A stretch of DNA of 64,000 nt, taken from IMG/VR virus record IMGVR_UViG_3300045988_162176, positions 128,001 to 192,000 of that record. The stretch is one strand, 5' to 3'. Positions 1 to 64,000 of this stretch are shown here, one piece after another; positions within the stretch are counted from its first letter, which is position 1; the number at the start of each line of letters is the position of its first letter. A program made the translations under genes and the position numbers. The DNA is from a virus. Under the pieces are notes generated by a model. That model was given only the letters and a program-made list of their open reading frames with translations, was not told the origin of the DNA and made no database searches.

Positions 1-1007
1 GTCCTTAATCGTTCATTGTATCTTAAATAGTTGTCATATAACAATTTGTCAGCTTTATAAACTTCTTCATATTTATCGTCAAAGTCTTTATCAAAACCTA
101 AATAAACTGTATCTACTCCAAGTTTTTCTAAAGCTCTAATTTGCCAATCTGAAACATTAAAGCCGCAAGTTGCCACTACGCAACTTTTACCTTTAAAATA
201 AGTGTCTGCTTTTAAAACACTCTTTTCTCCCTCAACTATAACTGCTTTTTTAAATCTTTTTATGTTTTCTTTATTCTCATAAAGTCCATACAAATTTAAT
301 CCGAGAGGATGGTCAAATTCTTTGCCAGTCATAAATAAAGGCATATATTTTCTTTTAGAATCTTCTGGTTGTAAACTTCTTCGTCTAATACCAACCAAAT
401 GACCATCTATATTATAATGAGGAATAATTATATATTTTTGGTATTCGTACCATTCAATACCAAATTTTTCCATAGAGGGAATGCTAATCCCCTCATCAAT
501 CCAACCCTTATAAAAAGTATTACGGTCAAAATAATTAAAAAGACATTTATAATCATCATAAAACTTTGTAATTTTAGCTTCATGGAATTGTTGTCTTCTT
601 TCAATATCTTCTGACTGTTTTATCATATCAGATAATTGTCCACGTAATTCTGGTGAAACATCATTTCCAAAGCCTACACGACTTCGAGATAATGATTTTC
701 CAACCTTTTTTGCTATGTAAACAATTACCTTACTATAAAACTCTCCATCTTTAGCATTACGAATTCTTTTTATAAATTCAAAAAAATTCATTCGCCCACA
801 ATTCGTATAGCAGAAAAAGTCTTTGCTTTCTGTAAAGAAACATAATTTATGACTGTCTCCACCATGACAAATTGTTTTAAACCAAAGACATTTTTGTTGA
901 GTTCTTCCATCTGTAGAAGTTGAGTATAAAGGAGAACCATTTTCTTCCATGATGTTAATAACTACATCTTCTGTTACCAACTTCAACAGTTCATCTTTAT
1001 CTATCAT
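1..1007 (-). CDS. DNA primase, DnaG-like (Zn finger + TOPRIM); C-terminal end lies beyond the window
   Basis: The minus frame is open from ATG 1005-1007 to the window edge. It is missing from the ORF track because there is no stop in the window. Hand translation gives MIDKDELLKLVTEDV.., a Zn-finger-like CHGGDSHKLCFF..FFCYTNCG, and TOPRIM-like VIVEGEKSVLK and YLGFDKDFD. A GAGG SD lies upstream. No in-frame TAG. Confidence 0.8.
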   Translation of the reverse strand, partial: MIDKDELLKLVTEDVVINIMEENGSPLYSTSTDGRTQQKCLWFKTICHGGDSHKLCFFTESKDFFCYTNCGRMNFFEFIKRIRNAKDGEFYSKVIVYIAKKVGKSLSRSRVGFGNDVSPELRGQLSDMIKQSEDIERRQQFHEAKITKFYDDYKCLFNYFDRNTFYKGWIDEGISIPSMEKFGIEWYEYQKYIIIPHYNIDGHLVGIRRRSLQPEDSKRKYMPLFMTGKEFDHPLGLNLYGLYENKENIKRFKKAVIVEGEKSVLKADTYFKGKSCVVATCGFNVSDWQIRALEKLGVDTVYLGFDKDFDDKYEEVYKADKLLYDNYLRYNERLR

Positions 1008-1019
1008 AACCAACCTCTG

Positions 1020-2147
1020 TTAATAATCTATTTCTTCTTCCTCTTTAGATGAAGCCTTTTTTTCTTCTTCGTCTTCATCCTCTTCTACCATTCTAAATTT
1101 TCTGCTTTCGGGAGATTCTAAGAATGGTTCTTCTTCGTTATCCAAAGTTTCCTTTATCCTTTTAACAACATCTTCTGTATCTTCAAATACATCAAAAGTA
1201 CCTTCCTCTTTTGCCGTTTCTGCAATATCAACAGCATCACTTATTATCTGTCCACGAATAGCATCTTTATCATTAGTGAAAATTACTTTCTGGTCTTCCT
1301 CGACACGAGTAAATGTTTGTGGAATATCTAATAAATCATAATCATAATCAGTACAGAATAAATCATGGACCCTCATTGTTGCATAATCAACGTATAACCA
1401 AATTTTACATTTAGTATATTCTCCACCACGATTCTTATACACAGATATACATCTATTAGGTTTATATTTTAAAAATCTATTTTTGATAATCTTCTCTAAA
1501 TACTTTTCTTCTTTTTTAGATACTTCTGATACAATAGAAGCTGTATCAACCTTATCAATGATAGCTTTAGCTCCACGAACAATGGTTTGGTCACGATTTT
1601 GCTCATTTTTAAAATCACCAGAAACCTGCGTCCAAGTATCTATACTAATATCATATTTTCGGGTAAGCTCTTTTAATTTTAAGCTCAAATTAGCAAGAAC
1701 TTGGTCTTCACGAATTTGCATCCTTGCTTTGGCGTTAGCTTGGAATTCACTAATTAAATCAGTGGTTACATGAATATAATCAAAGAAAACATTTCTTACT
1801 CCATGCTGAAGAACATGCTGTTCAATAATATTTTCTAAAGTACCAATATCATAATCAGGTACATATTCAAGATAAATATGTCCTTCTTCATTAAGAATTC
1901 TAATGGCTTCATCCACACGCTCTTCTTCATCCCCATAATACTTACCAGTCATAATGTGCTCTTGAGGAACATCAGCAATATAAGCCCATAAGATAGGCTC
2001 AATTTCTGTGATAAGTTCCATTTCTGTTCCAATATAAAGAGCAGCATTTTGAGTGCCATTTGGATTCTCTACAAACTCCATCTTATTAGAATCCCAATAC
2101 TTCGGAGTAAAAGAATGACAAAGATTAGCAATTGTTAAACGGGTTTT
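1020..2147 (-). CDS. DnaB-like (SF4) replicative helicase, exon 2
   Basis: Track ORF 1020..2081 extends upstream in frame to 2147 (KTRLTIANLCHSFTPKYWDSNKMEFV..). It contains ALYIGTEMEL and VFFDYIH motifs typical of DnaB-family ATPase cores. Joined to exon 1 it completes the Walker A GTGVGKT. TAA stop. Confidence 0.75.
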   Translation of the reverse strand, partial: KTRLTIANLCHSFTPKYWDSNKMEFVENPNGTQNAALYIGTEMELITEIEPILWAYIADVPQEHIMTGKYYGDEEERVDEAIRILNEEGHIYLEYVPDYDIGTLENIIEQHVLQHGVRNVFFDYIHVTTDLISEFQANAKARMQIREDQVLANLSLKLKELTRKYDISIDTWTQVSGDFKNEQNRDQTIVRGAKAIIDKVDTASIVSEVSKKEEKYLEKIIKNRFLKYKPNRCISVYKNRGGEYTKCKIWLYVDYATMRVHDLFCTDYDYDLLDIPQTFTRVEEDQKVIFTNDKDAIRGQIISDAVDIAETAKEEGTFDVFEDTEDVVKRIKETLDNEEEPFLESPESRKFRMVEEDEDEEEKKASSKEEEEIDY

Positions 2148-2415
2148 CGATTTGTTATCGTAAAGTTTTTTATCTTTACTTCTGCAACATTACATTGCAG
2201 TCCAGCATAACTTTTCACGCTTAATGTCGATGCGTGGTGCGGCCTCGTGGTAGGATTATATCTTTTCACCTACTATGCGTTGCCCCTGACTATATTTAAT
2301 ATAGCCTTCGGTTCTGATTGCCTTTATATACGGTTTTCCAGCTTAATTCCGCACTAATAATATTAAATCTTCAATCGACTTGATTTAACACGGCATTTCT
2401 AATTTATTAGAGTTT
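2148..2415 (-). ncRNA. Group I intron (ORF-less) inside the helicase P-loop codons
   Basis: 268 nt with no ORF, GC-richer than its flanks. The minus strand carries core-like elements GGAATTAAGCTGGAA (P), GGCAATCAGAAC (Q), CGCATCGACATT (R) and AAATATAGTCAG (S). The upstream exon ends in U (GGU) and the intron ends in G (..AAAUCG). Boundaries are inferred. Confidence 0.65.
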
Positions 2416-3099
2416 ACCTACACCCGTTCCAGCAGAAGAAACAGCAAATTTTCTTGGCTGAATACCTTTTGTTATGGTAGTCATATAGTTACTTGCATAA
2501 GACAAACCATAAGCAGGAGTTTTCTTCCATTCTTCTTTTTGCTTTCGAGCCTCTTCACTACCAGCTTTAACACTATCACGCCCAACTTTAGGGCTATATT
2601 CCTGAGTGATATTAGACACCTTTTGTCTAAAATGATTTAGTATATCATCAATAGTCATTTGACTAAATTGATATCTTTGTTCATCGGCAATTTCAGGGTC
2701 CTCTTCATTCGGGTCAAAAATTTCATCTACATCAATGCCAGATTTAAGATAAGCACGAAGCAAAGAGAACTTTTTCATTTCTTGATAATTAGTATTAAAA
2801 TTTTCTGGCGTAGCTAATTCTTTCGCTTTTTCAACATAAAGATTGCCATTATTTCTCGTATAAATATTATATAAAGACTGCAAATTGTTTTTTAAGTAGT
2901 CATCAATAATATATTGGTCAAGCTTTACCGCGCCTTGCGAGAAAAGATTGTTTATCGCTACAAATAAAAGCTGATGGAAAGCTTCAACAAAATCTTTTTT
3001 GTCAATCTTGTTACTTGCTAATAAAGTTGGATTCTACAGTAAACAACCAAGAACTTCTTTAATTGCAGATTTGCTTTGATAGTCTCTATAATCCGCCAA
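2416..3099 (-). CDS. DnaB-like replicative helicase, exon 1 (N-terminal domain to first half of Walker A)
   Basis: TTG start at 3097-3099 behind a GGGAGGG SD. This is track ORF 2407..2883 plus an upstream extension through one in-frame TAG (3034-3036). Sequence ..SAIKEVLGCLL[TAG]NPTLLASNKIDKKDF.. resembles the DnaB N-terminal domain and ends ..SSAGTGVG at the splice site. Confidence 0.7.
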
Positions 3100-3100
3100 G

Positions 3101-3802
3101 TTAACCCTCCCATTCTTCAGGATGTTCAGACATTATTTCCTGAATATCTCTTTGTAGTTCTGATAAATACATATTATCTTTTCCTCTTTGCTTTTGAACT
3201 TCTCGTCTAAAATTATAATCTCCAATAAAATCTGTATTAACAAGACCATCATCAACGATATCATCCGCAGAAATTTCTTCTTTATGATTTCGTTTATCTC
3301 GTTTTTCATCATCCTCTTCTTGTTTTTTAATAATTTCAGAACGAGCAACATCTATTGCCACAGGTGGTTTTGTTAAGATATACTCAATAAATTCAGATTT
3401 AGTCATTCTCGTTTCTTTGTACTTTTGCCAAAATTCTCTTGATTCAGCAAAATAACGCACAACCATGAAAATGTCTGATTCTGTTTCTATTTTAGGAGCT
3501 GGATTATCAGCATACTCATACATGTAATATAAAGTATAAAGAATTTGAGAATTAGTTAAACCATATTTTTCTTTTATCTTTTTTATATGAGAAGCTATAA
3601 GAGGAGCATTAACCCATTCTCTCATACCTAATCCATCCCAAAGGTAATCGGTCAAAAGCCTATAATCTTTTGCATCTTGCGCTGGCTATTTCCCACAAAT
3701 AGGGCAATAATTTTTACCATTTACAGTAATAATTTCCTCAGTAGGAAACATTTTACCACAAACACTACATTTTCTATTTTTCTTTGGCGCTATAATCCTC
3801 AC
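3101..3802 (-). CDS. Zinc-ribbon protein, possible replication organiser or helicase-loader
   Basis: Track ORF 3101..3655 extends upstream through an in-frame TAG (3686-3688). The N-terminal part has CSVCGK..CPICGK. It sits between the ATPase and helicase genes. The start (GTG 3800-3802 or a nearby codon) is uncertain, and the function is inferred from position only. Confidence 0.35.
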
Positions 3803-3874
3803 TCCTTCCTTAAAAATATTAAAACGGAAAATAAAGGGGAATAGTAATCAGTTTTACTATTCCCCAATAATTGT

Positions 3875-4894
3875 TTATTCTACTGTAATATTATTTTCAG
3901 TACAGTAATCTTTCAAATCATCGAGAATAAGTAAAAGCATATCCAATTGAGATTCATCGCAATCTTTTACACTCTTACCCTTTCCAAGATACTCTGCAAT
4001 AATCTTCTTATATTCCGTACTACCAGTGTTATGAATTGCCTTTACATAACTACCGATTTCAGCAATAAGCTCATCAACGCTCTTCTTTTCATCTTCGGTT
4101 ACTTCGTTATCCTTAAAAAGATTAACCTCGTTATCAACAACTGTAGCACCGTGAGCCTTTTGTTCATCAATAGCCTTTGCCATATCATCACGCAATGCTT
4201 CATAAGTAAATGGAATGCATTCAGACATATAGGGGCTACGAGAACCAGCCTCAAGATGTTTGTTACCTCTCATCGTAAGCATAGAATGAACATTACCCTG
4301 TTCATCAGTTTCATAAGAAGCATAACCAGTTACGTCAACAAGACGAGAAACAACAAGGAATCCACGGTCAGGTACAGTAGGAATAGTCTTATCATACTTC
4401 TCGCCGTTTTCCTTAATCTGCTTAGTGGTGGCATGAGAAATACAAATCAAAGTATAACCAGCTTTAACAATCTCTTGAAAGAACTTATCATACTCACGAG
4501 ACAAAGCACGATAACCACGCATCTTTTCAGTCTCGTCAAGATAATCTACACCTTCTTTGTCTACGATATACTTTTCACAAAGGTCGTAGGCAATATCAAT
4601 AGTATCAACAATTACCGTTTTAAAGATTGTTTCTCTATTTTCCTTTTCAGCCGCTTCTGCATCTTTAAGCAACTGCTTCTTTACTTCAAGAGCTTCTTTC
4701 CAAGTGTTAATTGGCTGTGCAATAATGCCATCCAAGAAACCATAACCCTTTTCAAAGCCTAGCAAAATAGGCTTGGGGAATTTACAAGCGTTTGTAGTTT
4801 TGCCACTTTTTCTTTCTCCATAAATAAGAAAGCTCTTACCGCTAAGGTCACGAGTGACCACATTAGGCTTAATGCTAAAAATATCAATACCCAT
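3875..4894 (-). CDS. RecA-like / AAA_24 (Sak4-like) ATPase
   Basis: 339-aa track ORF with Walker A GERKSGKT near the N-terminus. It lies in the replication module next to the SSB. No TAG, TAA stop. Confidence 0.6.
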   Translation of the reverse strand: MGIDIFSIKPNVVTRDLSGKSFLIYGERKSGKTTNACKFPKPILLGFEKGYGFLDGIIAQPINTWKEALEVKKQLLKDAEAAEKENRETIFKTVIVDTIDIAYDLCEKYIVDKEGVDYLDETEKMRGYRALSREYDKFFQEIVKAGYTLICISHATTKQIKENGEKYDKTIPTVPDRGFLVVSRLVDVTGYASYETDEQGNVHSMLTMRGNKHLEAGSRSPYMSECIPFTYEALRDDMAKAIDEQKAHGATVVDNEVNLFKDNEVTEDEKKSVDELIAEIGSYVKAIHNTGSTEYKKIIAEYLGKGKSVKDCDESQLDMLLLILDDLKDYCTENNITVE

Positions 4895-4950
4895 TATTTA
4901 AATGTCTCCTTTTAAAAATTTTGAATTATTTTTAGTTGTCGATTAGAAAA

Positions 4951-5898
4951 TCAGAACGGAATATCATCGTCATCATCAACAACAGGAGACATCTTTCCAG
5001 AACCCTTCTTACCAAAGCCTGTAGGGGCAGAAGAACTACTACCACCCTTAGAACCCTGATATCCAGCTTCCTCAAGTTCCTTCAAACGACTTGCTCTCTC
5101 ATTGAGCATAGCCTTACACATCTGAGGAGTGATAATCATATCTTCCTGCTCATCTTCATCATAAGCAATATCACCACCCGTAAGAACCATTTCAAGATAG
5201 CTCTTACCCTCAGTCACTCTCTGCTGACCAAAACCCTTGGTCTTAGGTTTTGCTTCACCCTTTTCATTAGGCTTCCAACTAACGTACATCTTGGCGGTAG
5301 CTCCCTTAACATAACCGTTATCTTCAAGAGCATCCACAAAATCTTTGGGAATAATAATGTTCTTAATATCAAGAGCGTTATGATAAAAGTCCATACTAAT
5401 AAGATTAAGACGCTTTCTACCAGTAGGCTTCTTGTCATCTTCTGGGCCACGTTCTTCATCAGTAATACTCTTAATATATCCCTCGATATCAAGGTCGCAA
5501 GCAAATTCATCAAAATCATTAAAAAACTGCATAGAGGCAATAGTACCTTCGTGAAGCTGTTCATCAGACCCAACGTAATCATTTGCACTAAGAGAACCCA
5601 CAAGCTTTACCATGGTAGCGTTTTCTTTATCCTTAGTAAGAGGAACAGCCGTCTTCAACCAATTCAAAACCTTTTCATAGTTTTCGCTATCAGTTCCATC
5701 AGCCTTCTTTGCCTTAATAAAAGAGGAAAACTGTCTGGTCATTAAACTATCTTCGCCACACTGGATTTGTCCACGAATACGAATATAGTCAACGCCATTT
5801 TTGTCTACGCCCTACTTGGACTCAATATCAGCGAGATAACCCGCAAGAGTCACACTATTTGCCAATCTACGAATTTGGTCAGTATTTTTTGTAGCCAT
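4951..5898 (-). CDS. Single-stranded DNA-binding protein
   Basis: Track ORF 4951..5742 extends to ATG 5896-5898 through an in-frame TAG (5812-5814). The acidic C-terminal tip ..VVDDDDDIPF is the classic SSB tail. TGA stop. Confidence 0.6.
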
Positions 5899-5933
5899 TA
5901 TTTTTGTACTCCTTTAATTTTGTCTTTTAATTT

Positions 5934-6113
5934 TTAGTCTTCATTTTCATTGTTATCATCGTCATCGTCAATAGACTTGTAATCATTACAAGCATCAAAC
6001 GTCAAAGTAACGCCCAAATCTCTTCGAGCATCCTCAAGAAAAGGCTTAAGCTTTGCATACGCCGAGCACTTCACTAAAAAACGACAATCTTCACACGCAA
6101 GATTATTAACCAT
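5934..6113 (-). CDS. Small acidic-tailed hypothetical protein (59 aa)
   Basis: Below the track size cutoff. ATG 6111-6113 follows an AGGAG SD. Translation is MVNNLACEDCRFLVKCSAYAKLKPF...DDDDDNNENED, with a TAA stop. It is the first gene after the predicted promoter. Confidence 0.45.
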   Translation of the reverse strand: MVNNLACEDCRFLVKCSAYAKLKPFLEDARRDLGVTLTFDACNDYKSIDDDDDNNENED

Positions 6114-6164
6114 TTTACTATCTCCTAATTATTTAAAAAATCAACCTACCTTGGTTGTGAATAA

Positions 6165-6193
6165 AATATAGCATAGTTTTTTCATCTTGTCAA
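6165..6193 (-). promoter_or_regulatory. Sigma-A-type promoter for the replication module
   Basis: The minus strand reads TTGACA, a 17-nt spacer, then TGcTATATT (extended -10), about 50 nt upstream of the 5934..6113 gene. Confidence 0.55.
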
Positions 6194-6238
6194 GCATTTC
6201 TAAAAAATTTTTTCTTGAGGGCTCCCAAGTAATTCATC

Positions 6239-7189
6239 TTATCCTTCCCATTCAGAAAGAGGCTTTAGCGTTATATAATCTAAACCCGTAAGTTCATCAA
6301 TTATTTTTTTACAATCAGTGTAAACGATTTGTGGATAAGTTGTTAAACTGTCCCAACTACCTTTATAATTGCTTTTACAAAATTCTTTCGATATTTTTAT
6401 ATCTTCATTCACAGGATGTAAAAAAACACAATTTCCCGAATAATATTTTGTATTATCTCCATCTTTATAACTATCCCCTTTTGTCCAAACAGAACCATTT
6501 TGTATTTCCTTTACACTGGCTGAAAAAATTATCGTTTTATATTTTCCAGCTCCTAATTGACTATCATCTGTCACCCCTGCAAAAATTCCATTTCCCGTTA
6601 TTGTTTGCTCTTGTCTATCACCATTATATTTCCAATATGTTTCTATTCCACAAACATTTGGCGGTAACTCTTCTATATCAAGTACATCAATGTTTTTTAA
6701 ACTGAAAGCTATAGAGGATTTCTTTGCATATTCATATTCTTGGTATGAATGTACATTCAAATAAAAACAATTTCTGCCATTTGAAGTAATTAATCTACTA
6801 CCAGTAACTCCATACCCCGAACTTCCTGCTGTATATTTCATCACAGACCCATCTGGTTTTGTAAAAGTCGCAATATCATCATTAAATTCTAATTTAATTC
6901 CAATCGCCTTAAATGCCTCAACCAAAAATTGTTCCCCCGGCTCACCCGAGCCGATATAGTGTTGTAAAGCACTTGAATAATACGCATCTCGTTTTGCAAG
7001 TGCAACAGCATTTACATCCATAGCATGAATAAAACCGTTAAATGATTCTTCGTTAACTATAATAGAACTATCCAATAATTTATAAAAAAAATCGTATGTA
7101 TATGCCCTGTCATAATTATTTCCCATTGATACCATTCTTTGTAATAATCGGACCAAAATATATTTGTATTGTCCAGAAGTGTAAGACAT
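6239..7189 (-). CDS. Hypothetical protein, translationally coupled to uppS
   Basis: 316-aa track ORF whose ATG overlaps the uppS TAA (TAATG). No TAG codons and no motif I recognise. Confidence 0.5.
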   Translation of the reverse strand: MSYTSGQYKYILVRLLQRMVSMGNNYDRAYTYDFFYKLLDSSIIVNEESFNGFIHAMDVNAVALAKRDAYYSSALQHYIGSGEPGEQFLVEAFKAIGIKLEFNDDIATFTKPDGSVMKYTAGSSGYGVTGSRLITSNGRNCFYLNVHSYQEYEYAKKSSIAFSLKNIDVLDIEELPPNVCGIETYWKYNGDRQEQTITGNGIFAGVTDDSQLGAGKYKTIIFSASVKEIQNGSVWTKGDSYKDGDNTKYYSGNCVFLHPVNEDIKISKEFCKSNYKGSWDSLTTYPQIVYTDCKKIIDELTGLDYITLKPLSEWEG

Positions 7190-7848
7190 TAAGATACACC
7201 CCCATATTTTCTTTTTATACCCTGAAATGTTTTAACTGCGTGCTTAAATTCCCCAATAGATAAATCTGGAAATAAAGTATCTGTGAAATAAAGTTCAGAA
7301 TAAACAGATTGCCATAATAAGAAGTTGGACATACGATGATATCCACCAGTCCTGATAATTAAATCTGGTTCGGGAAGATTTTGATACAAAGCAGCAGTAA
7401 TCTCATCTTCTGTTCTCGCTCCCTTAGCAATAGCATCAACAATCTCCATTCGACCAGAGTAATTACAACATAGATTCAATATCATACCATCACAATCTTT
7501 CGTCTCATTTTGAATTAAATCCATTTTAGACAAATTTTCTTTTGGAACTCTCTCTTTCGTTCCTGATATTAAAACACGAATATTGTTTTGTTTAAATTCT
7601 TCATATCTATCAAAATATTTGTTTGCCATTTCAAATAATTTATCAACTTCCTCCTTGGGGCGATTCCAATTTTCCCATGAAAAGCAGTAAACAGATAACA
7701 CAGGGATATTTAATCCTACACACCAATGCGTCATATCCTCCAACTTTTTCAGACCTTGCTCATGCCCTGCGGAACGTTCTAAGCCACGTTTTTCCGCCCA
7801 ACGTCCATTCCCATCTGCGATAACCGCAACGTGTTTTAATTGATTCAT
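7189..7848 (-). CDS. uppS: Undecaprenyl-diphosphate synthase (cis-prenyltransferase)
   Basis: The track ORF carries UppS hallmarks: HVAVIADGNGRWA, FSWENWNRP and RTGGYHRMSNFLLWQSVYSELYF. It is collinear with E. coli UppS as I recall it. GGGAGG SD, no TAG. Confidence 0.85.
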   Translation of the reverse strand: MNQLKHVAVIADGNGRWAEKRGLERSAGHEQGLKKLEDMTHWCVGLNIPVLSVYCFSWENWNRPKEEVDKLFEMANKYFDRYEEFKQNNIRVLISGTKERVPKENLSKMDLIQNETKDCDGMILNLCCNYSGRMEIVDAIAKGARTEDEITAALYQNLPEPDLIIRTGGYHRMSNFLLWQSVYSELYFTDTLFPDLSIGEFKHAVKTFQGIKRKYGGVS

Positions 7849-7863
7849 AGTCTTCCTCCCTTG

Positions 7864-8859
7864 TTATTCCGCTGCCGTCTTAGGAAATGTTACTTGAACA
7901 ATCCCACTGTTTGCCTGATTTGTAATTGTTGTTGCACCATTAAGAGTAAAGAAATTTTCAGGTACGCCGTCAAGCTTGTATCCCCTTTTTGGGGTAAGAG
8001 TAATAGTGGCAGAATAGCTTGTATTTGCTTTGAAACTACTGTCTGCTGGGTTCCAAACAACAGTTGCATCATATTGCTCATTTTCATTTGTTTTCTTAAC
8101 AGCAACCTCCCCTTTAACTGGCGCTTTAATTCCAAGTATATCATTTTGAGTAACAGTTACTAATATATCACACTCATCAAGTCCGTAAAGTGCTATAGTT
8201 ATATCATTCTTGGGAACATCAACACAAGAAATATAAATCGTTGTATATCCTGCAATATTCTTTTTTGTGTCAGGCGCTACATAGTTGATATTAGGCAACG
8301 TTAAAGCAGAATCTATAACTTGCTGAGTATTAACATAACTATCATTGTTTTTTGGTAGGCCTATTTGTACCCCATATTCCCCTGGTTTACTTCCATTTAC
8401 TTTTAATACATAAGTATGTCCGTTTTCAACTGCGTCCCAATTAGTAAGGACAAAATCAAGGGGTTCTCCAACAACATAAATGATTTCTGAAGGCCGTGGT
8501 AAAGAACCTCCATCACCATTACTAATCCTATAATTACTAGGAGCAATATTTTTAAATGTTGTTTCATGTTTTGCTGTAACCCAGCAATTATTAAAACTTC
8601 CTGTTTTAAGCATTATTTCAACAGAATCTCCTTCTTTTAACTCAAAAGGTGTTTGATTTTGAATCCTTGTAAATTTAGATTCTTTCTCCCGAGGTAGCAT
8701 TACATCCACAGTACCATCACTATTTACATTTGCAACAACTGCGCTTTCTATTTTTGGAGAGGTCTTTTTTATTTCTTGTTTTACGCATAAAACAATTCTA
8801 CGCAGCATTTCATCTGCATATTCATCATAGTTGTCGTTAAATTCATTATTTTCATTCAT
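7864..8859 (-). CDS. Tail or baseplate protein with C-terminal Ig-like beta-sandwich repeat
   Basis: 331-aa track ORF directly after the baseplate-like genes. The C-terminal ..YDATVVWNPADSSFKANTSYSATITLTPKRGYKLDGV.. resembles surface-protein Ig-like repeats. No TAG. Confidence 0.4.
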   Translation of the reverse strand: MNENNEFNDNYDEYADEMLRRIVLCVKQEIKKTSPKIESAVVANVNSDGTVDVMLPREKESKFTRIQNQTPFELKEGDSVEIMLKTGSFNNCWVTAKHETTFKNIAPSNYRISNGDGGSLPRPSEIIYVVGEPLDFVLTNWDAVENGHTYVLKVNGSKPGEYGVQIGLPKNNDSYVNTQQVIDSALTLPNINYVAPDTKKNIAGYTTIYISCVDVPKNDITIALYGLDECDILVTVTQNDILGIKAPVKGEVAVKKTNENEQYDATVVWNPADSSFKANTSYSATITLTPKRGYKLDGVPENFFTLNGATTITNQANSGIVQVTFPKTAAE

Positions 8860-8863
8860 ATAT

Positions 8864-10090
8864 TTATTTTTCTCCTTGACTTTCCTTTTGACTTGTACTA
8901 ACAGGTAAATCAGAAGTATTACAACAACTTAAACTTATCTACCCATTTTCGGCAGTATAAGAAATAGAAGTTATAAGTAGTTTTTCTCGTTTTAACTAAA
9001 GAAAACCATCTTCTACCTCACATAAATTATTTACTGTTAAAATTGGATTGAAACTTACAGTCATAGAAAAAGAAACCCCAACAAAACTAGCCTATCTTAA
9101 ATAATAATTTGCCAAATTCCTTGCTAAATCTTCATTCCAAATCTAAGAAGATGTATATGGAGCATCCATCCTTCTACCAATTCTTTCGACACAAATTGGA
9201 GATGCAGGGTTATTATTTTCAACAATAGCAGCACAAATAGAAGAATCTATACCATCACCAACAACCTTAACACAATTAATAACATTTTCGTTTTGATATT
9301 GTAAATTCATATTATGCAAATCTTGACCTATCTCTTGATATGTCCAAATAATAGGTTTTGTTGAATCGTCTACAGTTTCATTTAATGGATAAAAACACAA
9401 ATTACCAACTGTATTATAATAATATTCTGCCGATAGCTATGTTGCCAAAGATTCAATTATTACACTTAAATTCTCCCGCTATTCTGCCCTAATGGTTTGT
9501 TGAGTTTTCATCCGAACAAACGAAGGGTCGAAAATAGGTTCTTTATAATCTAATATATAACCATTTCCTTGTGCAAAATTAAGAACGCCATTTACAGCAT
9601 CTATTATATCACTGCCAAGTTTAACTTCATACGCAGTTTCTAAAGTTCCTGTCTTTCCTTCAAAAATTGCGTATTTATCAGACAATTGAAGTTGAACGGT
9701 CTTATTAGCATCCCCTCTGGATAAATCTATTTCTCCCATTATATAAACCCGTTTGGGAAACCAAATTATTTGCCGTTCATATTCTATTCCCACATCAAAA
9801 CTAAACCTAGTATTAATCCATAACCCGTTCATATTAGGAGTATATTGACCTTTATCATTTATTAAAGTAACGCCAATACTTCTTCTCTAACCATTCTAAT
9901 AGTTTTCAGTGTAATTTAAACCATTAAGAACAATATCTTTTTCTGGTATAATATACTATATTTGTTCATCAGGGGTTAAAACAGATAATCTAAAACGAGG
10001 TTTAACAACAGGTCTTTCTAATATTTTTTTTAATACATAAAAAGGAATTGCATTCTCTTCTCTTAAAAGAATATCACCAAAAATACTCAT
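8864..10090 (-). CDS. Baseplate / tail hub-like structural protein
   Basis: ATG 10088-10090 follows an AAGGAG SD. Track ORFs 9479..9832 and 9143..9400 share its frame, and all gaps are bridged only by TAG (about 9). TAA stop at 8864-8866. Function is inferred from position. Confidence 0.5.
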
Positions 10091-10101
10091 TGCAATCTCC
10101 T

Positions 10102-11109: not shown

Positions 11110-11124
11110 TTAACTCTCCTTTCT

Positions 11125-45802: not shown

Positions 45803-45821
45803 TTAAACCCTCCTTATTTGT

Positions 45822-49451: not shown

Positions 49452-49455
49452 AAAA

Positions 49456-49983: not shown

Positions 49984-50007
49984 AATAAAGTTATCCTCCT
50001 TTTTTAA

Positions 50008-53392: not shown

Positions 53393-55288
53393 TCAATCCT
53401 TTACTTTCTTTGGAATCGTATGAGTAAACGTATTCATATCATTAATACGAGACTCATACATTTCTTCCAAGCATTCGTTACAAATTACATCTTCATCTTC
53501 ATTCAGTTCTTTTCCGCAAATTTGGCACTTTTTGATATTATATGAAAACTCCTTAATGTCTGAAACATTAGTTCCAGCATTGGAAGAGTTACCAGTATTA
53601 TCGTTGGTAATCTCATCATCATTCAATTTTGGTCTACCAACAGGGTTGGCGATTAAATTTTCTTGGTCTAAGACTTTTTCAACTTTAATATCTAAAGCTT
53701 TAAGATAAGCTTTAGCTTGTTGATAATCATCGACAGTCATGCCATTAGCTGACAAAAGTTTAGGGATAAAGCCTTCCAAACCAGACACGACTTGTTCTCT
53801 AAGAATTTTAATATCTTCACGAATATTAAAAATATCACCCCAAAGAGAGATTTTCCATTGGAATTTCAAATCAAAATTCTTATTAATCATTTCATTTAAA
53901 AAACTTTCGTATTGTCTGGTAAGGTAATCAATTCTAGCAGCCTAAATATATTGGGAAGCCTTAACAGAAGCGATAGAGGGTTTATCAGTAATACTCATAA
54001 GAGCAGAGTTGCCAGAAGTGGCGATTAAATCTCTAGTTCTATCATAAATGATATCCATTGCTTCGGGCTGATTTTCAAGTGTGTGCAACTCAAAATCATT
54101 AAACGGTGCGAAGAAACCTAAGATATTTCCAGAAATATTACTTTCAAAGAAATCTTGATAACCAAGAATTGTATCAGGGGTAATAATTGTAGCATCGGAC
54201 CGGGCCTTGGCATCCTTCGTAAGCGGAACTTCCGCAGTTAAAACACTATTAACACCTTTACTAAGCAAGCTAGCTTGCAACCATTTATAGTCATCCAAGT
54301 CTGTCAAATCATCAAACAGACCAATAGTATCAGGAAATGCATTAGGATGAGCGCCATCAAAATAAAATGTATAGCATAAATCTTGAGGAAGTCTTACCCA
54401 ATACATATAGTTTTCTCCATTACTTTCCAAAATGTGACCATCAGGAAGTTTAGCTTTAGGAGAAATTCTCTTTTTCTTAGTTTTCTAATCTATAATGACA
54501 ACACCTGTTTCCAACATTTGATTCCAGACATCCTGAATAAATTGAGGATACTGGCTAACATCATAAGCTGGTTGAAGGAAAATTGCCATATTAAAAGCAA
54601 TAGTAAACTGTTGCTTACTACCAAAGCCAATCAATTTAACCATATCGGTATTAAGTTTTTGCATGACAAAGAAATTAACAACATTCTTATCATAGCTTGT
54701 ACGAGGCAAGTAAGAAGATTTACCTTCCAAGCTCACCTAAGTAGTAATAGTTCTTAAGGTTAAATTTGGATTAAAAGCTTTTAAAATTTTATCCACTTTT
54801 TGACTTTCTTTTTTAAAAGCCTCTGTAGACATATCTTTTGAGTCAACATATTCTGGGATATAATAATAATTAAATAAGGGAGTATCTCTATTAAGTTTTA
54901 CTAAAATATTATAAACATAATTAGTATAATACAGCCACATACTGATTCTCTAAAAAGTCATTTCAGAGTTTTCAGGGTTATTCAGAGCGCTTTGTAATTC
55001 TTCTGCCTAAACTTTTTGAGCTTTAGCATTAATTTGTTTAATACGTTGATTTTGTAAAAACGGATTGTTTAATTGACTCCAAGACATAGCCCAAGCGCCA
55101 GCCAAATTATCAAAACCAGTAGAAGCGTATTTACCAAAAATAGTAGCCCATCTTTGCTGAATTGCTTTTAATGAGACATCTTCTTCAAGTTTATCTTGAG
55201 TCATAGTAATCATTTTAGCTTCTTCATTTACGACAGCTTTAGGCGATTCAACCTTTTTGGGTCTTCCTCTTTTTTTGGGACTATCCAA
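53393..55288 (-). CDS. Portal protein candidate (~631 aa)
   Basis: Track ORFs 55007..55288, 54737..54940, 54485..54736, 53942..54430 and 53393..53890 all have ends congruent mod 3 and are joined by five TAGs (54736 and 54737 abut). TTG start after a GGGAGG SD, TGA stop. Size and position upstream of the scaffold and capsid genes support the call. Confidence 0.55.
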
Positions 55289-55703
55289 TATTATTTCCTC
55301 CCTTCTTATTAATATTATCAGTCTCTTGAGACTTTTTAGCTTTTTCTTGTTCAGCTAAAATATGTTCGAAATTATCAAGAGCTTTCATAGTATCTCTCAA
55401 TTTCTGTTGCTTTTCTATTTCATATCTTTGTTTTTCAATAGCAACCAAATTGTCTCTACACCATTCGATAACGAAATCATTTTCATTCATAATATTTTTC
55501 TCATTGACTTCTCTGACAATAAAATTACGAGCTGGTTTTAAAGATTTTTTCAATGTTGCATAAGCTTCATCTCTAAATTTATATTGAGCCAAAGCAAGAT
55601 AAAGATTATCATCTTGATAAATAAATTTATAATACTTCCCAATTTTAGAAAGCATTGATTCAAAACTATCAGTATTAAAATCACCGATTATTTTATAGAC
55701 CAT
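55248..55703 (-). CDS. Hypothetical protein upstream of the portal
   Basis: Track ORF 55281..55703 ends in TAG and the frame continues 10 codons to TGA 55248-55250, overlapping the portal start. Confidence 0.4.
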
Positions 55704-55884: not shown

Positions 55885-56850
55885 TTATTCCTCGTCAACA
55901 ATAGTTACGACAGAATTATAAGTTACAGCTCCATTTTTATTGTAATTAATACCAGCACCAGTTCTTATGTTGACACCAGAAGATGCTGTAATTTTACCTT
56001 TGTAATTTTTAAAGGTCTTAACTGAAGTAGCACTCTTTTTAATATAAGTTAAACTTACCCAACCACTACCATCAGCCAACTTACCCCAACCATTATCTTC
56101 AAGAATAATAGAAACAACCGTTCCCTTTTTAAGAGTTCCAGCAATAGAAGAGGAAACAGAAGGCCCCTTACGAATTCTCAAAACAGAAGCGGTAACAACG
56201 CCAGAATAAGACACAGTGATTTCGGTATTAGAAGGCGCAACAGGAATTACCTTGCCCATCTTAGCAGCAACATCTTGTCTAAAAGTATCCATACTTTTAC
56301 CAAAACGAGGGAACCAATTACGGGGGTCAGCATGATTAGAAGCGATACCTCTTTGATGTCCTTCATAGTGGCCAATAATTACGCCATCTGCAAGTGGGTC
56401 AAAATTATAAAGCTGACAAAGATAAGCTGCAAATTCAACAGCTTCTTTGTAAACCTTGTTAAAATAATTTGTGTCGCTTAAGCTATCTTCGCACATTTCA
56501 AAACTGATATGCGATAAATTCCGACTTCCTTTATTTCCCTTGCCACAATGCCAACCTTTGTAATTCCAAGGCAATGTTTGCACCGTAGCAATTTCACCAT
56601 TAGCAAGTTTACCAATAAAAGCGTGAACACAAACATTCGTATTAGATTTATTCCAAGCAGTACCACCGTTATTCTTACCAAGCTGCGAAATCAAAGTATT
56701 ATAATTACTATCATTAGTAGAAGGCTGTACATATCTTTTCAAATTGGGGTTATTACAACCAGTACTATGAACCATAATCCCTTTTGGAGTAATTTTCACT
56801 CCATTTTTATAACATCTATTCTATGTAAAAAGACATTTTAATAATTTCAT
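55885..56850 (-). CDS. Endolysin: N-acetylmuramoyl-L-alanine amidase + SH3b-like repeats
   Basis: Track ORF 55885..56799 extends through a TAG (56821-56823) to ATG 56848-56850 (AAAGGAG SD). The amidase-like region has ..GIMVHSTG..GWHCGKGN..ISFEMCED..IGHYEGH..HADPRNWF. SH3b-like repeats end ..GWGKLADGSGWVSLTYIKK. Confidence 0.75.
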
Positions 56851-56871
56851 TCTTTTTCTCCTTTTAAATCT

Positions 56872-57213
56872 TTACTCCTAAATAATACTTTGAATAATAG
56901 GAGTAATGGCTTCTATACCATATTTATCTGCCAATTGATTTATAAATGACAAACTTATCTTCATTCTATTTTCCGCACGCTCTTTAAAACAATAGCACGC
57001 ATTATATACAGCGACCTCTCCCCAAGACAAACCTACAACAGTAGCAAAAGAAGCTGTATCAGCTCCAACTGGTCCAAAGAAAATAAAAATTATAAATAAT
57101 GAAGAAAGGGTAATGGTGGCAATCCAAGAAATAATTCCCCATTTTTTCATTGTTGGTGTATTCTCCATCATCCTTTTAAATTTTTCGAAAATAGAGATTT
57201 TCTGTTTACTCAT
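56872..57213 (-). CDS. Holin candidate (two TM segments)
   Basis: This uses the internal ATG of track ORF 56878..57264, preceded by an AAAGGAG SD (MSKQKISIF..). TM-like stretches are WGIISWIATITLSSLFIIFIFFGPV and ASFATVVGLSWGEVAVYNACYCF. The end reads TAG GAG TAA. It sits directly upstream of the endolysin. Confidence 0.55.
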
Positions 57214-59797: not shown

Positions 59798-60703
59798 TTA
59801 AGTGCCAAGGTATTTAATGTAGACAGCGCCGCGCCGTCCGATACCACCCCCACCGGCTCCGTACATTTTTGAAAGAACTCCTTTTCCGTAATTTATTACA
59901 TAATCACCGCTGCTTGATGCAACTCCGTCAGCGCCAAGATTTCCAGTGCCTTTTCCAGGTGTTGTTGCGTTTGTAGCATTTCCCCCATTATCTACCGATT
60001 TTGACCCAAAAGATGTTTTTGAAGATGAGTTCGAACCAATTACAACAGCAATAGAACTGCCCTTTGTCATTTGTACGTTGTCATAACTTTGACAAGAACT
60101 TCCTCCAGAAGCAAAATTACTATAATAATATTGACCGATTCCACCCATACCATACAATTCAATATAGTATCTGCCAGTATGAGGTGCAGTCCATGTTCCA
60201 GAGGAAGTAATTATCCATTCAGCCCCCCCGCCCATATCATATCCACCAATAGCAGCAAAGTAATATATTTCACTCTCCTTATTATACTGACTGGATACAG
60301 AATCTGAGGAAAATAACGAAAACGTTTTTCTATCAGTGGAACTTGTTATAAAGCACACCCCAGAAGCAAATGTATTATAAAATACACCCTATGATTCCGT
60401 AACCATATTAGCTTGAATAATGTCCCAACCACGATTCTAACTCGTCATATAAGCTGGCATAAAAATAATTATTGGCTTAAACGGAAACGTCAATGTCGTC
60501 GGATGACTTGCTCCATACGTTCCTGTTCCCCTATATGTCCCAGTATATAAATATAAATCAGTACTGGTTAATAAATTCTAAATTTCATCATATGTTTTGC
60601 CACCAAGCTGTTGACTATTAAGAGCATTATAAGCAAGAGGCAACAGACCATCATAATCTGTGCCATTGAATTTCTTCATGTTTATGTTGTAATTTTGTGA
60701 CAT
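59798..60703 (-). CDS. Receptor-binding / fibre family paralog B with Gly-rich C-terminal domain
   Basis: ATG 60701-60703. Three TAGs link it to track ORF 59798..60358. The N-terminal module is MSQNYNINMKKFNGTDYDGLLPLAYNALNSQQLGGKTYDEI. The C-terminal part has ..TSSGTWTAPHTGRYYIELYGMGG... Confidence 0.55.
60581..60693 (-). repeat. 113-bp perfect direct repeat, copy 1 (5' end of paralog B)
   Basis: By my alignment of the printed sequence it is identical to 61329..61441. Confidence 0.85.
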
Positions 60704-60965
60704 ATTTATCTTTTACTAAATCTAGAGTACAAGATAGAGTTACGTCTGATTAAATTTAATTTTTTTAATTTAATAAAAAAGTAAAAGTAAAAACAAAAGT
60801 AAAAATATTTTTTAAGAGCAAAATATTTTAAAAAGTAAATAAAAATGCATTTTAAAATTTTGAATTAATAAATTGAATTAATAAAAGAGAATCTGATTAC
60901 GCCATCTCATCCGCTGCTCTAATAGTTGACATAATATTAACTCCTTTTACATAATTAATATACAA

Positions 60966-61427
60966 TTAAGATTCTTGATATCCGAAAATGATATATGAAT
61001 AAGTTTTACCCATATCGTTAAATTGCATCTCGGCTGTGTTATACGATGTGTTGCTATTGACATTATACCAACTAATATATGTATCTCCCCAAGTCGTTTT
61101 GTTGTAACGTACTTGGTCAACAAAACTCATTTTATCTGATATAATAGCGCCATTTTGTGAGTAGTAATTCGAATAGCTGTCGTAAACATTCATGATATAA
61201 ACTGGTGTAAAGCCACACGTAATAACATTTGGATTCGACACACCGTATTTACCATTACCAACATAACTTCCCCATTTTGTTATAACATTTTTGCCACCAG
61301 TTCCAATTAAAGATTGCACATACTGGACAATTTCATCATATGTTTTGCCACCAAGCTGTTGACTATTAAGAGCATTATAAGCAAGAGGCAACAGACCATC
61401 ATAATCTGTGCCATTGAATTTCTTCAT
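60966..61427 (-). CDS. Receptor-binding / fibre family paralog A
   Basis: Track ORF 60966..61478 trimmed to the ATG that begins MKKFNGTDYDGLLPLAYNALNSQQLGGKTYDEI. It continues ..GSYVGNGKYGVSNPNVITCGF..MQFNDMGKTYSYIIFGYQES. The start choice is uncertain. Confidence 0.55.
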   Translation of the reverse strand: MKKFNGTDYDGLLPLAYNALNSQQLGGKTYDEIVQYVQSLIGTGGKNVITKWGSYVGNGKYGVSNPNVITCGFTPVYIMNVYDSYSNYYSQNGAIISDKMSFVDQVRYNKTTWGDTYISWYNVNSNTSYNTAEMQFNDMGKTYSYIIFGYQES

Positions 61428-61441
61428 GTTTATGTTGTAAT
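61329..61441 (-). repeat. 113-bp perfect direct repeat, copy 2 (5' end of paralog A)
   Basis: Identical to 60581..60693. It covers the start region and the first ~35 codons. Confidence 0.85.
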
Positions 61442-61484
61442 AAAAATGGAATTTTATTTGGCAATATATATAATACAATATAAC

Positions 61485-61527
61485 ATTCGAAATTCGTGCA
61501 AATTCGATACGAATTTTCGGAAATTGG
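61485..61527 (-). promoter_or_regulatory. Candidate operator: AAATTCG-type heptamers phased at 10 bp
   Basis: AAATTCG at 61490 and 61500, the inverted CGAATTT at 61510 and GAAATTG at 61520, upstream of paralog A. Confidence 0.25.
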
Positions 61528-61636
61528 CTCTAAATAAATGAACGATTTTATCAGGCAATTTTATCAATTTTTTCTTTTTTATTTGCTTTTATTCTTTTTT
61601 TTACTTTTAATAATTTATTTTTTTGTTTTTTTGTAG

Positions 61637-62298
61637 TTACGTTGTTGCTTCCGTTAAAGCATACCACTAATATGTAATACCAGATTCGTTAAATTGATAA
61701 GATGCATCGCGTCTGTCATACTAGCTATAAGCATTGGTATTATTAAACGATTCATACTGTGTCTGTGTTATAATAACACTTCCATTATTATAACTTAATG
61801 TTATACTAACATATTCGTCAAACTAGCCATAATCACCACTGTTTTTGTTAGCAAAAACTAAAAAAGTCTAATCTGGAATTAAATTAATAGCTATAAAACC
61901 TATATCATTATATGGTGAAAATGTTGTATTCGAACTCATTTGGGTTGAACGCATACAAGTGACATTAAATTTAGACCAGTTCTAAACTGTCCTGTTTACA
62001 AATTTTTTACCTGAATACGTTGGACTTACTGTAAAAAGTCCATAAAAAAGCACTAATTTAGGTTTGGCTCCAACGTAAAAAGTGGTAGGACTTGTGTATA
62101 CTCCGTTACCAACATAACTACCTGTAGCAATCCGACATAACCCTTCTCTAGCTTGGGTTATAATGTCAGATTTGCCCCCCCCCCTAGTTTTTCAGCGTTA
62201 TTTGCATTTGTAGCAATATCCGCTAAATAAGCATGAGGGAGGATATTATCATAATCAGTTCCATTGAACTGTTTAATATTAACATTATAATCACTCAT
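61637..62298 (-). pseudogene. Receptor-binding / fibre family paralog C, out of frame at a G10 tract (phase-variable or disrupted)
   Basis: ATG 62296-62298 after an AGGAGG SD gives MSDYNVNIKQFNGTDYDNILPHAYLADIATNANNAEKLGGG and then TAA after 47 codons. In the -1 frame the ORF continues KSDIITQAREGLCRIATGSYVGNGVYTSP.. through five TAGs to TAA 61637-61639. Confidence 0.6.
62175..62184 (-). repeat. Homopolymer C10 (G10 on the coding strand)
   Basis: Read directly from the sequence: tttgcccccc cccctag. Confidence 0.9.
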
Positions 62299-62960: not shown

Positions 62961-63338
62961 TTATTTGCCCTCCTCTTCCTTTGCAACATTTGATTGGTCA
63001 CTATAGCCAATAAGAGCATTAAGAACATCGTCAGTAGTAGGTTCTGGTTCTTGAGGGTCAGGGTCAACTGGGTCAGGATGTTCCTTCTTCCATTTATCAA
63101 GTAATTCTTGATTACCTGTCATCTTTGTAGCTGTGTCCCCATCAATCTCAAGATTTACGAACCCCATGAAAGGAACATAAACATTCATAATATCTTCTTC
63201 GGTGGTCCAAACATAACCATCAGGGGGGAATAATCCACTCCAAGTTTGATTACTACGAGAACCAGTTTCATTGGCATCACGCTGAATAATCCATCTATTC
63301 ATACTTTTTTCTTCCTTTTTAAATTGTTTAAACAACAT
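62961..63338 (-). CDS. Hypothetical protein (start possibly at the internal ATG, MNRWIIQ..)
   Basis: 125-aa track ORF whose stop abuts the next start. An AAGGAAG SD precedes the second ATG. Confidence 0.4.
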   Translation of the reverse strand: MLFKQFKKEEKSMNRWIIQRDANETGSRSNQTWSGLFPPDGYVWTTEEDIMNVYVPFMGFVNLEIDGDTATKMTGNQELLDKWKKEHPDPVDPDPQEPEPTTDDVLNALIGYSDQSNVAKEEEGK

Positions 63339-63700
63339 AATTACAAAATAAATTATAAATCGAATAAATAATTACGTTGTGATGAATAAGAATCTTAGCC
63401 AGTAATAGCTATTTATTTGTAAACTCGTCCATTGTCTGCAAATAATTAATTTGGACGCTATCAATTATTCGCTCTCTTATTCAAATTTTTTATGCTTTTT
63501 TCATGCTATAATTGTATCTGTATATCACATTTTTCGTATTATAATTATACAAGTATAACACAAAAAGAGCATATTTATAAAATTTAATAATAATTTAATA
63601 ACAATATAATAATAGTTAGATTTCATAAATACAGCTCTTTTTGCTTTTTAGATTATTAAGTTATAACAACAAAAATTATTTTTTGTTCGGAAGAAGTTGT

Positions 63701-63740
63701 TTTAAAAAACCGAGAGAAAGACATTATATCTCTCTCTCGG
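63701..63740 (-). terminator. Rho-independent terminator
   Basis: The CCGAGAGA / TCTCTCGG stem is followed on the minus strand by TTTTTT, 50 nt after the TAA of the partial upstream gene. Confidence 0.6.
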
Positions 63741-63791
63741 TGTCGTATTAATTAAACTACTTTACAATAATTAATCTTATTCAGATTTAAA

Positions 63792-64000
63792 TTACTGAAC
63801 AGTAACTTCCTTAGCGGCAACAGCGATATCACCAACAGCAAGCTCAACAGCGTCAGCAGTAAACTTGGTACCAGCAGCATTAACAGTAGCCTTATCATAA
63901 GTAACACCAGAAACGACCTGAACTTCAGTACCCGTAAAGGCAGCATTGACAGTGTTCTTGTCACCAGTAAAGGTAGCAGTAAACTTATCACCAGTAAACA
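63792..64000 (-). CDS. C-terminal end of a highly expressed structural protein (Ig-like?), N-terminus beyond the window
   Basis: The frame is open from the window edge to TAA 63792-63794: ..FTGDKFTATFTGDKNTVNAAFTGTEVQVVSGVTYDKATVNAAGTKFTADAVELAVGDIAVAAKEVTVQ. Codon usage is capsid-like. Track ORF 63752..63991 is in a different, implausible frame. Confidence 0.5.
   Translation of the reverse strand, partial: FTGDKFTATFTGDKNTVNAAFTGTEVQVVSGVTYDKATVNAAGTKFTADAVELAVGDIAVAAKEVTVQ

Follow-up and report, generated by a model that had tools for sequence, protein, structure and literature searches.

Probable reading of UAG as glutamine in the late genes of a large gut phage distantly related to SPbeta

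The DNA analyzed here is a 64,000-nucleotide (nt) stretch of a virus genome (IMG/VR record IMGVR_UViG_3300045988_162176, positions 128,001 to 192,000), hereafter the window, which comprises the late region of a tailed phage, with its virion and lysis genes, and the start of the replication region. Many of its coding frames are crossed by TAG codons, and an earlier sequence-only reading had proposed that TAG is a sense codon throughout this segment. We consider it very probable (roughly 0.88) that this SPbeta-like gut phage of ~214 kb reads UAG as glutamine, as in genetic code 15, with UAA and UGA as its sole terminators.

Gene content and reading frames of the window

The window has a G+C content of 33.4%, and every gene lies on the minus strand, as do the introns described below. 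Replication and other genes (DnaB_C, AAA_24, YorF-like and UppS-like) occupy positions 1–8859 and contain two TAG codons. The tail module that follows is dense in TAG, with a baseplate/tail-module gene of 408 amino acids (aa) carrying nine, or 39% of its Gln and TAG codons (8864–10090), a tail-module gene of 335 aa carrying nine, or 69% (10102–11109), and a tail/baseplate protein gene of 1150 aa carrying 22 (11125–14577). At the first of these genes, relatives have CAA, CAG or TAG at five of the nine sites; by relatives we mean the related contigs and genomes compared with the window, labeled L001–L257. Next to the module lie a late gene of 354 aa with three TAG codons (14714–15778), a probable free-standing homing-endonuclease-like gene of 321 aa with six (15920–16885), to which a weak Pfam match to DUF723 points, and the tape measure gene, whose second exon (16949–22570, in a frame open from 22573) carries 18 and whose first exon (22896–30302, 2469 codons, PhageMin_Tail) carries 13. 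A 216-aa gene upstream of the tape measure gene has four (30316–30966). Pfam matches identify a GIY-YIG homing endonuclease gene with seven (31768–33267), absent from L001 and L003, and a tyrosine-recombinase gene of the phage integrase family with three, which has a SAM-like and a catalytic domain (33519–34517); the adjoining 178-aa gene has three as well, all kept as TAG in relatives (34517–35053).

Further along are a ClpP-family protease gene with two TAG codons (36824–37480, Pfam), of which an identical copy is found in the independent assembly L004, the YomU tail-tube open reading frame (ORF) of 280 aa with none (40359–41201), a late gene of 325 aa with seven, six of which are kept as TAG in relatives (41852–42829), and a YomW-family gene with a 407-aa neighbor, each with two (42860–44739). 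In the head-gene block (44757–51768), TAG is found only in an endonuclease gene carried by an intron, and the block is equally TAG-free in L001; the genes without TAG are the exons of the YonB/phrog_4088 head protein (48822–49337 and 46779–47300), a scaffold-like gene (50008–51768) and the genes at 49456–49983 and 44757–46670. The portal protein gene (53393–55213), assigned by PHROG 2739 and by tblastn to Mammaliicoccus phage portals, contains five. The lysis genes lie within 55885–57213 and comprise an Amidase_2+SH3 endolysin gene (Pfam) whose codon 10 is TAG and a gene for a membrane protein of 113 aa, a holin candidate by its hydrophobic sequence, with TAG at codon 112 of 113. Variable late genes at 59798–61954, identical in L014 and L017, add three (59798–60703) and four (61637–61954).

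Genes were called from the first ATG to TAA or TGA and nested ORFs were dropped, which gave 50 genes with 17,913 codons. TAG occurs in frame 134 times in these calls, within the range of 130–140 that had been counted by hand, and is spread over 27 of the 50 genes. Neither TAA nor TGA occurs in frame in any of the 17,913 codons, and each gene terminates in one of them (TAA in 43, TGA in seven), as had been stated for the re-joined genes. The two non-coding frames of the same genes contain 515+268 and 1129+1148 TAA+TGA codons; since both are abundant there, their absence from frame 0 is selective. The four abutting ORF pairs cited by the sequence-only reading all have a plus-strand CTA, or TAG in coding orientation, between their members (the pair meeting at 15131/15130 lies in the 354-aa late gene), and its uninterrupted runs of 7.4, 5.6 and ~3.4 kb were recovered as minus-strand frames free of TAA and TGA at 22893–30305 (7413 nt), 16949–22573 (5625 nt) and 11125–14604 (3480 nt, the 1150-aa gene). 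That such runs are not expected by chance was borne out by a wide margin, as the longest run free of TAA and TGA in 50 shuffles of the sequence was 690 nt, and a run of 2471 codons has a chance probability of ~1e-63 after correction for all start positions.

Coding density rises from 57% under code 11 to 84% when TAG is taken as sense, and reassigning TGA brings no gain (58%). In the tail block (8864–34520) the increase is from 53% to 96%, and the longest ORF grows from 586 aa under code 11, where the median ORF is 170 aa, to 2469 aa. The standard code thus makes 43% of the region look non-coding and shatters its largest genes, whereas code 15 shows a dense late operon. TAG accounts for 17% of the Gln-type codons across the window; its positions are evenly distributed along genes, and its 3′ neighboring base is like that of other sense codons. 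The gene caller of the public collection lists products of 2469 and 1150 aa for genes of the window, so automated pipelines already read through TAG.

Three group I introns were found in the window with Rfam. The runs of 7.4 and 5.6 kb are two exons of one tape measure gene parted by such an intron (22571–22895; RF00028, 57.7 bits, E 5e-12, matching 22615–22905). From the sequence, exon 1 would end at 22896 and exon 2 start at 22570, with the 3′ splice site after G22571, and splicing would join ...VDMAAA to ISAGDLAAAM... in a product of ~4342 aa, a tape measure protein unusually long even among SPbeta-like phages. The two ORFs of the head gene match positions 27–140 and 176–330 of the YonB/phrog_4088 profile, and the gene's group I intron (48506–48865) carries a DUF7487/DUF559 homing endonuclease ORF with four TAG codons (47411–48433). 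The third intron (41430–41741, 57.5 bits) lies just upstream of the YomU ORF; at this site a LAGLIDADG ORF is present in L001 and L003, whose tube is 344 aa long, compared with 280 aa in the window, and the first exon of the tube is probably located upstream of the intron. A motif common to the three introns has at least 120 matches in IMG/VR, those listed being mostly in unrelated phages, so this type of intron is widespread among phages. Apart from these elements, an undecaprenyl-diphosphate-synthase-like (UppS-like) gene without TAG (7189–7848, Pfam Prenyltransf) lies between the tail module and the replication genes, and the gap between the beta-CASP nuclease and ClpP genes contains an Rfam match to the drum small RNA (37871–37967, 44.7 bits, gathering score 43).

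Codons and residues opposite TAG

To identify the residue, window proteins with TAG written as X were compared by tblastn with ~25 related loci, and the facing codons were read from the DNA of the relatives because public protein sets may render TAG as Q by fiat. Opposite 81 usable window TAG sites, relatives have TAG at 47 sites, CAA at 41 and CAG at 20, followed by GAA (12), AAA (9) and TCA (7). As CAA lies two substitutions from TAG, mutational proximity cannot account for this exchange. An empirical substitution profile was taken from the same alignments for each of the 20 amino acids, and the facing residues were scored against these profiles; the log-likelihood was −187 for Gln, −286 for Lys, −289 for Glu and −290 for Ser, placing Gln ahead of every other amino acid by ~99 nats. 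The reverse test gave the same picture: of the 298 window Gln sites, 26 (8.7%) are TAG in relatives, and for every other residue this share is 1.8% or less. The sequence-only reading had favored Gln by precedent, which these comparisons support, and had noted polar residues (K/N/S/D) aligned to TAG in internal repeats, a hint now overtaken by the ortholog evidence.

Alignments to relatives do not end at the TAG positions but continue through them. Orthologs in relatives carry in-frame TAGs of their own and essentially no TAA or TGA; the 1150-aa protein, for example, has 15–18 TAG codons in 12 relatives. Profiles derived from standard-code families likewise cross TAG positions: Pfam matches span TAG codon 200 of the ClpP-family protease (CLP_protease, residues 38–211), codons 46 and 83 (SAM-like, 36–103) and 317 (catalytic domain, 142–319) of the integrase, codon 114 of the GIY-YIG endonuclease (54–151), and codons 135 and 145 of the DUF7487 endonuclease (95–229), and the PHROG 2739 match of the portal protein (residues 49–548) crosses all five of its TAGs. 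Judged from these sequence comparisons, 27 of the window's genes use UAG as a sense codon with the meaning of Gln, and the rapid exchange of TAG and CAA/CAG among close relatives provides a clean demonstration at the DNA level.

Suppressor tRNA genes in related genomes

The window itself has no suppressor tRNA gene, as the sequence-only reading had reported; no tRNA of any kind was detected in it by ARAGORN or by Rfam at E≤1, or in the 9 kb past either end of it in the same genome. Related IMG/VR genomes were therefore walked with chimeric protein queries to reach the tRNA region. These relatives have an array of 14–18 tRNA genes ~25 kb beyond the helicase that follows the window, and at the end of the array, between tRNA-Arg(UCU) and a conserved 151-aa gene, lies a tRNA(CUA). 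This conserved locus would be ~40 kb beyond position 1 of the window, where the suppressor of this genome is to be expected. The tRNA(CUA) gene is intact in L237, L240, L241, L243, L244, L248, L249, L251, L254 and L257 (and in L242, by position), and it is interrupted, with its 5′ half present, in L235, L236, L239, L250, L252, L253, L255 and L256. Ten of these genomes (L248–L257) are complete-length ones taken from ENA, Logan and JGI, and the locus is occupied in all ten. A tRNA(CUA) gene is thereby present or reconstructable in each relative examined at this locus. We thus strongly infer from the relatives that the genome of the window encodes a suppressor tRNA(CUA) of its own.

Three unrelated tRNA(CUA) scaffolds alternate at this one locus in otherwise similar genomes, in a cassette-like manner. 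In type A, U1 and U72 are mismatched, position 73 is G and CCA is encoded; type B differs in acceptor stem and backbone sequence, and type C is interrupted in every copy seen and followed by a GIY-YIG gene. In eight genomes the anticodon loop contains an insertion, which measures ~210 nt in type A and ~265 nt in type C; in one scaffold it separates U35 from A36, and in another it precedes C34. The interrupted genes lie at 20019–20312 in L239, 9583–9880 in L253 and 18634–18945 in L236, start at 9582 in L255 and L256, at 8573 in L250 and at 8567 in L252, and one more is found in L235. Removing the insertion in silico from one example per scaffold (L239 and L236) restored a tRNA(CUA) accepted by ARAGORN. 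At normal sensitivity Rfam did not call these insertions group I introns, but the type A insertion, searched alone as a region of 441 nt, matched Intron_gpI end to end (34.9 bits, E 2.3e-7, under the gathering score of 50). In ~40% of the genomes examined, the CUA anticodon would exist only once a group-I-like intron has been removed. A limited full-text literature search returned no report of intron-split suppressor tRNAs in phages.

Other features of the array region were recorded alongside. Directly after tRNA-Thr, ARAGORN calls in seven related genomes a tRNA whose anticodon loop has eight bases and whose anticodon has four, 'ggta' (L238 18099–18171, L240 17587–17659, L246 18083–18155, and L251, L252, L255 and L256), which could be a frameshift-suppressor-like tRNA or a mis-call. 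Rfam tRNA matches of 122–157 nt that ARAGORN overlooked correspond to array tRNA genes with insertions of 50–85 nt (L236 17640–17796 and 18291–18423; L239 14123–14244 and 19709–19841; L241 17412–17544; L250 2187–2324 and 8229–8361; L253 4295–4416 and 9275–9407). In each of the ten complete-length genomes (L248–L257, ~11040–11470), the second gene downstream of the suppressor tRNA has an Acb2/Tad1 hairpin domain, which belongs to an anti-defense family of signal sponges.

Several observations weigh against the decoding of UAG as Gln by a phage suppressor tRNA. Some TAG sites face Ser (TCA/TCG), Lys, Ala or Glu codons in relatives, as expected at variable sites, although the Gln signal of these alignments is then not a pure one. 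Identity between the suppressor tRNAs and several isoacceptors among the phage's other tRNAs is 65–68%, and tRNA-Gln is no closer; as tRNA similarity is uninformative, the Gln assignment rests on the codon comparison and not on tRNA identity. Spliced in silico, the type C scaffold shows a long variable region. The suppressor of the window's genome is itself deduced from relatives that are 82–94% identical in aligned segments, and no release-factor or aminoacyl-tRNA synthetase gene was found in the annotation of the related genome parts examined, ~40–50 kb lying outside them. Finally, a few TAGs stand 2–10 codons before the TAA or TGA end (56872–57213, 55248–55703 and 16949–22543) and could serve as stops early in infection.

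Some of these points would also fit a sense codon for another amino acid, such as Ser, Glu, Lys or pyrrolysine, maybe differing among the suppressor scaffolds, which we regard as improbable. Ser is the second most frequent residue opposite TAG (8%), with TCA or TCG at several sites, the variable region of type C could be taken in the same direction, and ARAGORN tags CUA tRNAs as 'Pyl', albeit as a convention. Many Firmicutes form Gln-tRNA indirectly via Glu, which we also count in favor of a residue other than Gln. On the other hand, the site-codon combinations opposite TAG are 61 for CAA and CAG together, against 12 for GAA and nine for TCA and TCG, and the lead of Gln in the likelihood comparison holds over every other residue. 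Genomes with scaffolds A, B and C have most TAG sites in common, with the same Gln-dominated partners, and no pyl genes were found in the annotation of the related genomes examined.

Uneven TAG use, lineage and known recoded phages

The claim that TAG is used as sense throughout held for the sense use but not for its extent, as 23 of the 50 genes, including most replication genes and the head and tube genes, have no TAG. Individual genes differ strongly in its fraction among Gln-type codons, from 0 to 0.69 (chi-square p = 2e-12). The value is 39–69% for the three baseplate/tail genes at 8864–14577, 41–50% for two homing-endonuclease genes, 14% for the portal gene and 9–18% for the tape measure exons; the endolysin and holin candidate have one TAG each. 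No TAG occurs in the exons of the YonB-type head protein, in the tube or scaffold-like genes, in several further genes of the head block, or in the beta-CASP nuclease gene and an exonuclease-like gene. Genes with higher G+C at third codon positions (GC3) have a lower TAG fraction (rho −0.37, p 0.013). A related 213-kb genome, of which 114 kb were analyzed, showed a comparable distribution: 38 genes out of 120 have TAG, which is dense across the late operon, scarce in the leftward-transcribed block and, in the tRNA region, mostly confined to endonuclease ORFs.

TAG content also differs between copies of the same gene. The window copies of two baseplate genes (8864–11109) carry nine TAGs each, compared with a median of 0–2 in relatives L020–L038, which are 41–76% identical and mostly have CAA at the window's TAG sites, indicating that TAG content shifts quickly in such host-range genes. 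The sole two TAGs of the replication module, at codon 22 of the gene at 3101–3751 and codon 29 of the YorF-like gene at 4951–5898, are both TAG in 17 of 21 relatives, and such conserved positions near the N-terminus hint at a deliberate delay of both proteins rather than drift. Homing-endonuclease-type genes are among the most TAG-rich ORFs, with up to nine TAGs in 207 codons (L215, 15153–15773), and these mobile genes are adapted to the code of the phage. Such TAG-rich genes lie in the window at 31768–33267, 15920–16885, 47411–48433 and 51938–52276, and the endonuclease-type families seen in the window or in a relative are GIY-YIG, DUF7487/DUF559 and, by motif, T5orf172-like and HNH-like.

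We propose that UAG decoding depends on a phage-encoded amber suppressor tRNA(CUA) such as the relatives encode, which the window's genome should have as well. The TAG-free genes needed first, such as the replication genes and the leftward block of the relative, would be translated by the host in the standard code, the tRNA array including the suppressor would then be expressed, and the tail, baseplate, portal, lysis and homing-endonuclease proteins would be completed only after the suppressor had become available. This order of events is suggested by the gene distribution and by the model of Borges et al. The avoidance of TAG in the highest-copy virion proteins (head, tube and scaffold-like) suggests that UAG decoding stays limiting or costly, presumably through competition with the host release factor 1.

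More tentatively, the code switch might be gated and modular, in that self-splicing, and not transcription alone, would time it in the genomes with introns. UAG might then act as a dosage throttle besides a timer, because the highest-copy virion proteins avoid TAG and the baseplate and homing endonuclease genes over-use it. We hold this extension to be doubtful at present.

A stronger version of such a throttle, in which UAG is a leaky stop that limits or truncates late proteins and full-length products are a minority, appears to us very improbable. It would account for the absence of TAG from the highest-copy proteins and its enrichment in low-copy tail/baseplate proteins and homing endonucleases, as well as for the decrease of TAG with GC3, and host release factor 1 presumably still competes, with no release-factor gene in the annotations examined. 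However, an 1150-aa protein with 22 TAGs and a tape measure protein with 31 need efficient reading of each UAG, and the TAGs show neither a special 3′ context nor a preferred position along genes. A leaky stop is in any case a refinement of Gln decoding and no true alternative to it.

The window belongs to a common phage family. By exact protein matches it lies on ENA contig ERZ27296301:k119_55060 (214,176 bp), at about positions 1878–65877 in reverse orientation, and ERZ28621211 scaffold_4 is a twin of this contig. A 214,257-bp contig from another study is identical to it across an overlap of 11.9 kb, IMG/VR contains ~20 related contigs of 120–220 kb, and genomes of the family measure 205–228 kb. 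The conserved 151-aa protein beside the suppressor locus occurs on at least 1000 contigs of up to 228 kb and in third-party 'Bacteriophage sp.' entries of GenBank. The tape measure region had no blastn match among 50,697 GenBank phage records and hence no close annotated relative. The best protein matches, at 23–32% identity, are in phages of Firmicutes, including 134-kb Mammaliicoccus phages; for the portal, tblastn against the same records gave five matches, none of them crAss-like, with the Mammaliicoccus phage portals at ~23% identity, and the exonuclease-like protein matches best in Bacillus, Lactobacillus and Oenococcus phages. Precomputed Pfam matches on window proteins and neighbors include YonB, YomW, YomU_Tube, YorF and YonG_N. 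The SPbeta-like relationship is a distant one and not at the level of a genus. A Firmicutes host is likely, the signals being the Amidase_2+SH3 endolysin and the SPbeta-type proteins, and among GTDB genomes the only match was a phage contig binned with an uncultured Clostridium metagenome-assembled genome, with no integrated prophage found.

Over TAG-containing genes (ClpP, portal and variable late genes), the window is matched at 100% identity by shorter contigs that come from different samples and assemblers, and such identity in independent assemblies excludes an assembly artifact. Broken genes, in which TAGs are genuine premature stops in a decaying prophage or products of assembly or sequencing, would look as fragmented as the code 11 view does, but decay would bring TAA, TGA and frameshifts too, and the lack of other stops and the conservation of TAG positions in relatives whose same genes carry TAGs of their own already refute this explanation, to which we give next to no weight. 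The abundance of the family on contigs of 205–228 kb speaks against it too.

Equally negligible is the idea that the host itself reads UAG as Gln and that the phage merely matches its code without any switch. To our knowledge, no bacterium with UAG as Gln has been described. The Clostridium bin is the only host link that bears on this idea, whereas relatives carry their own tRNA(CUA), and the replication and presumed early genes are nearly TAG-free, as expected if they are read in the standard code. Phages that match a recoded host use the recoded codon in ~90% of their genes (bioRxiv 10.1101/2021.08.26.457843), so the uneven use of TAG also argues against a recoded host. Partial recoding as found here fits the published pattern for phages of standard-code hosts.

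Amber recoding is an already well-documented change of code in phages and as a phenomenon is not new; what is specific to this family is the lineage and the gene-level pattern. Phages with code 15 (TAG to Gln) were reportedly described by Ivanova et al. in 2014. Code-15 gut phages include crAss-like, Lak and 'gemstone' clades (Borges et al., bioRxiv 10.1101/2021.08.26.457843, later Nat Microbiol 2022), and Gln at UAG was shown by proteomics in crAss-like phages (Peters et al. 2022, PMC9523058). As in these phages, we find low G+C, TAG concentrated in structural and lysis genes and aligned with Gln, replication genes largely compatible with the standard code and, in relatives, a phage-encoded tRNA(CUA), and homing endonuclease genes are strongly recoded as in the Agate phages of Borges et al. 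The lineage, however, is neither crAss-like nor Lak, with its closest annotated matches in SPbeta-like phages of Firmicutes; the strongest bias lies in the baseplate rather than in lysis genes, which have a single TAG each, head and tube genes avoid TAG, and no 'code change module' of release factor and synthetase was found in the annotation examined.

Among the published clades, Sapphire has genomes of ~201 ± 22 kb with 26% of genes recoded and a TAG-recoded representative, and alternatively coded clades were predicted to infect Firmicutes or Bacteroidetes (Borges et al., bioRxiv 10.1101/2021.08.26.457843). The family described here resembles Sapphire in size (205–228 kb), in the codon, in its Firmicutes signals and in the share of recoded genes, about one-third (38 of 120 in the relative), so membership is plausible, with the agreement being in size, codon and recoded-gene fraction only. 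The human gut phage phAss-1 (proposed Phassvirus, 136 kb) has TAG in 28% of ORFs, including terminase, tape measure and portal, together with many tRNA genes, three suppressor tRNA genes, tRNA-Sup(CTA), and no dedicated synthetase (PMC10607447). It shares with our phage TAG in the tape measure and portal genes and, as far as the relatives show, the many tRNA genes including a suppressor, but it is much smaller than ~214 kb, and the blastn search with the tape measure region revealed no DNA similarity to it. SPbeta, which uses the standard code, shares the YonB, YomW, YomU tube, YorF and YonG protein families. In both, the tape measure gene is very long, the late genes form a single long operon of one direction, and group I introns occur together with homing endonucleases, whereas our phage has a genome ~60% larger, a tRNA array of 14–18 genes (in relatives) and TAG as sense, and its portal is only ~23% identical to those of annotated SPbeta-like phages.

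Taken together, these results add a very common family of ~214-kb, SPbeta-like and probably Firmicutes-infecting phages to the known amber-recoded phages. Apart from one lead, nothing here alters what is known of how such recoding works. That lead is the intron-interrupted, exchangeable suppressor tRNAs, which alone might change our understanding of it.

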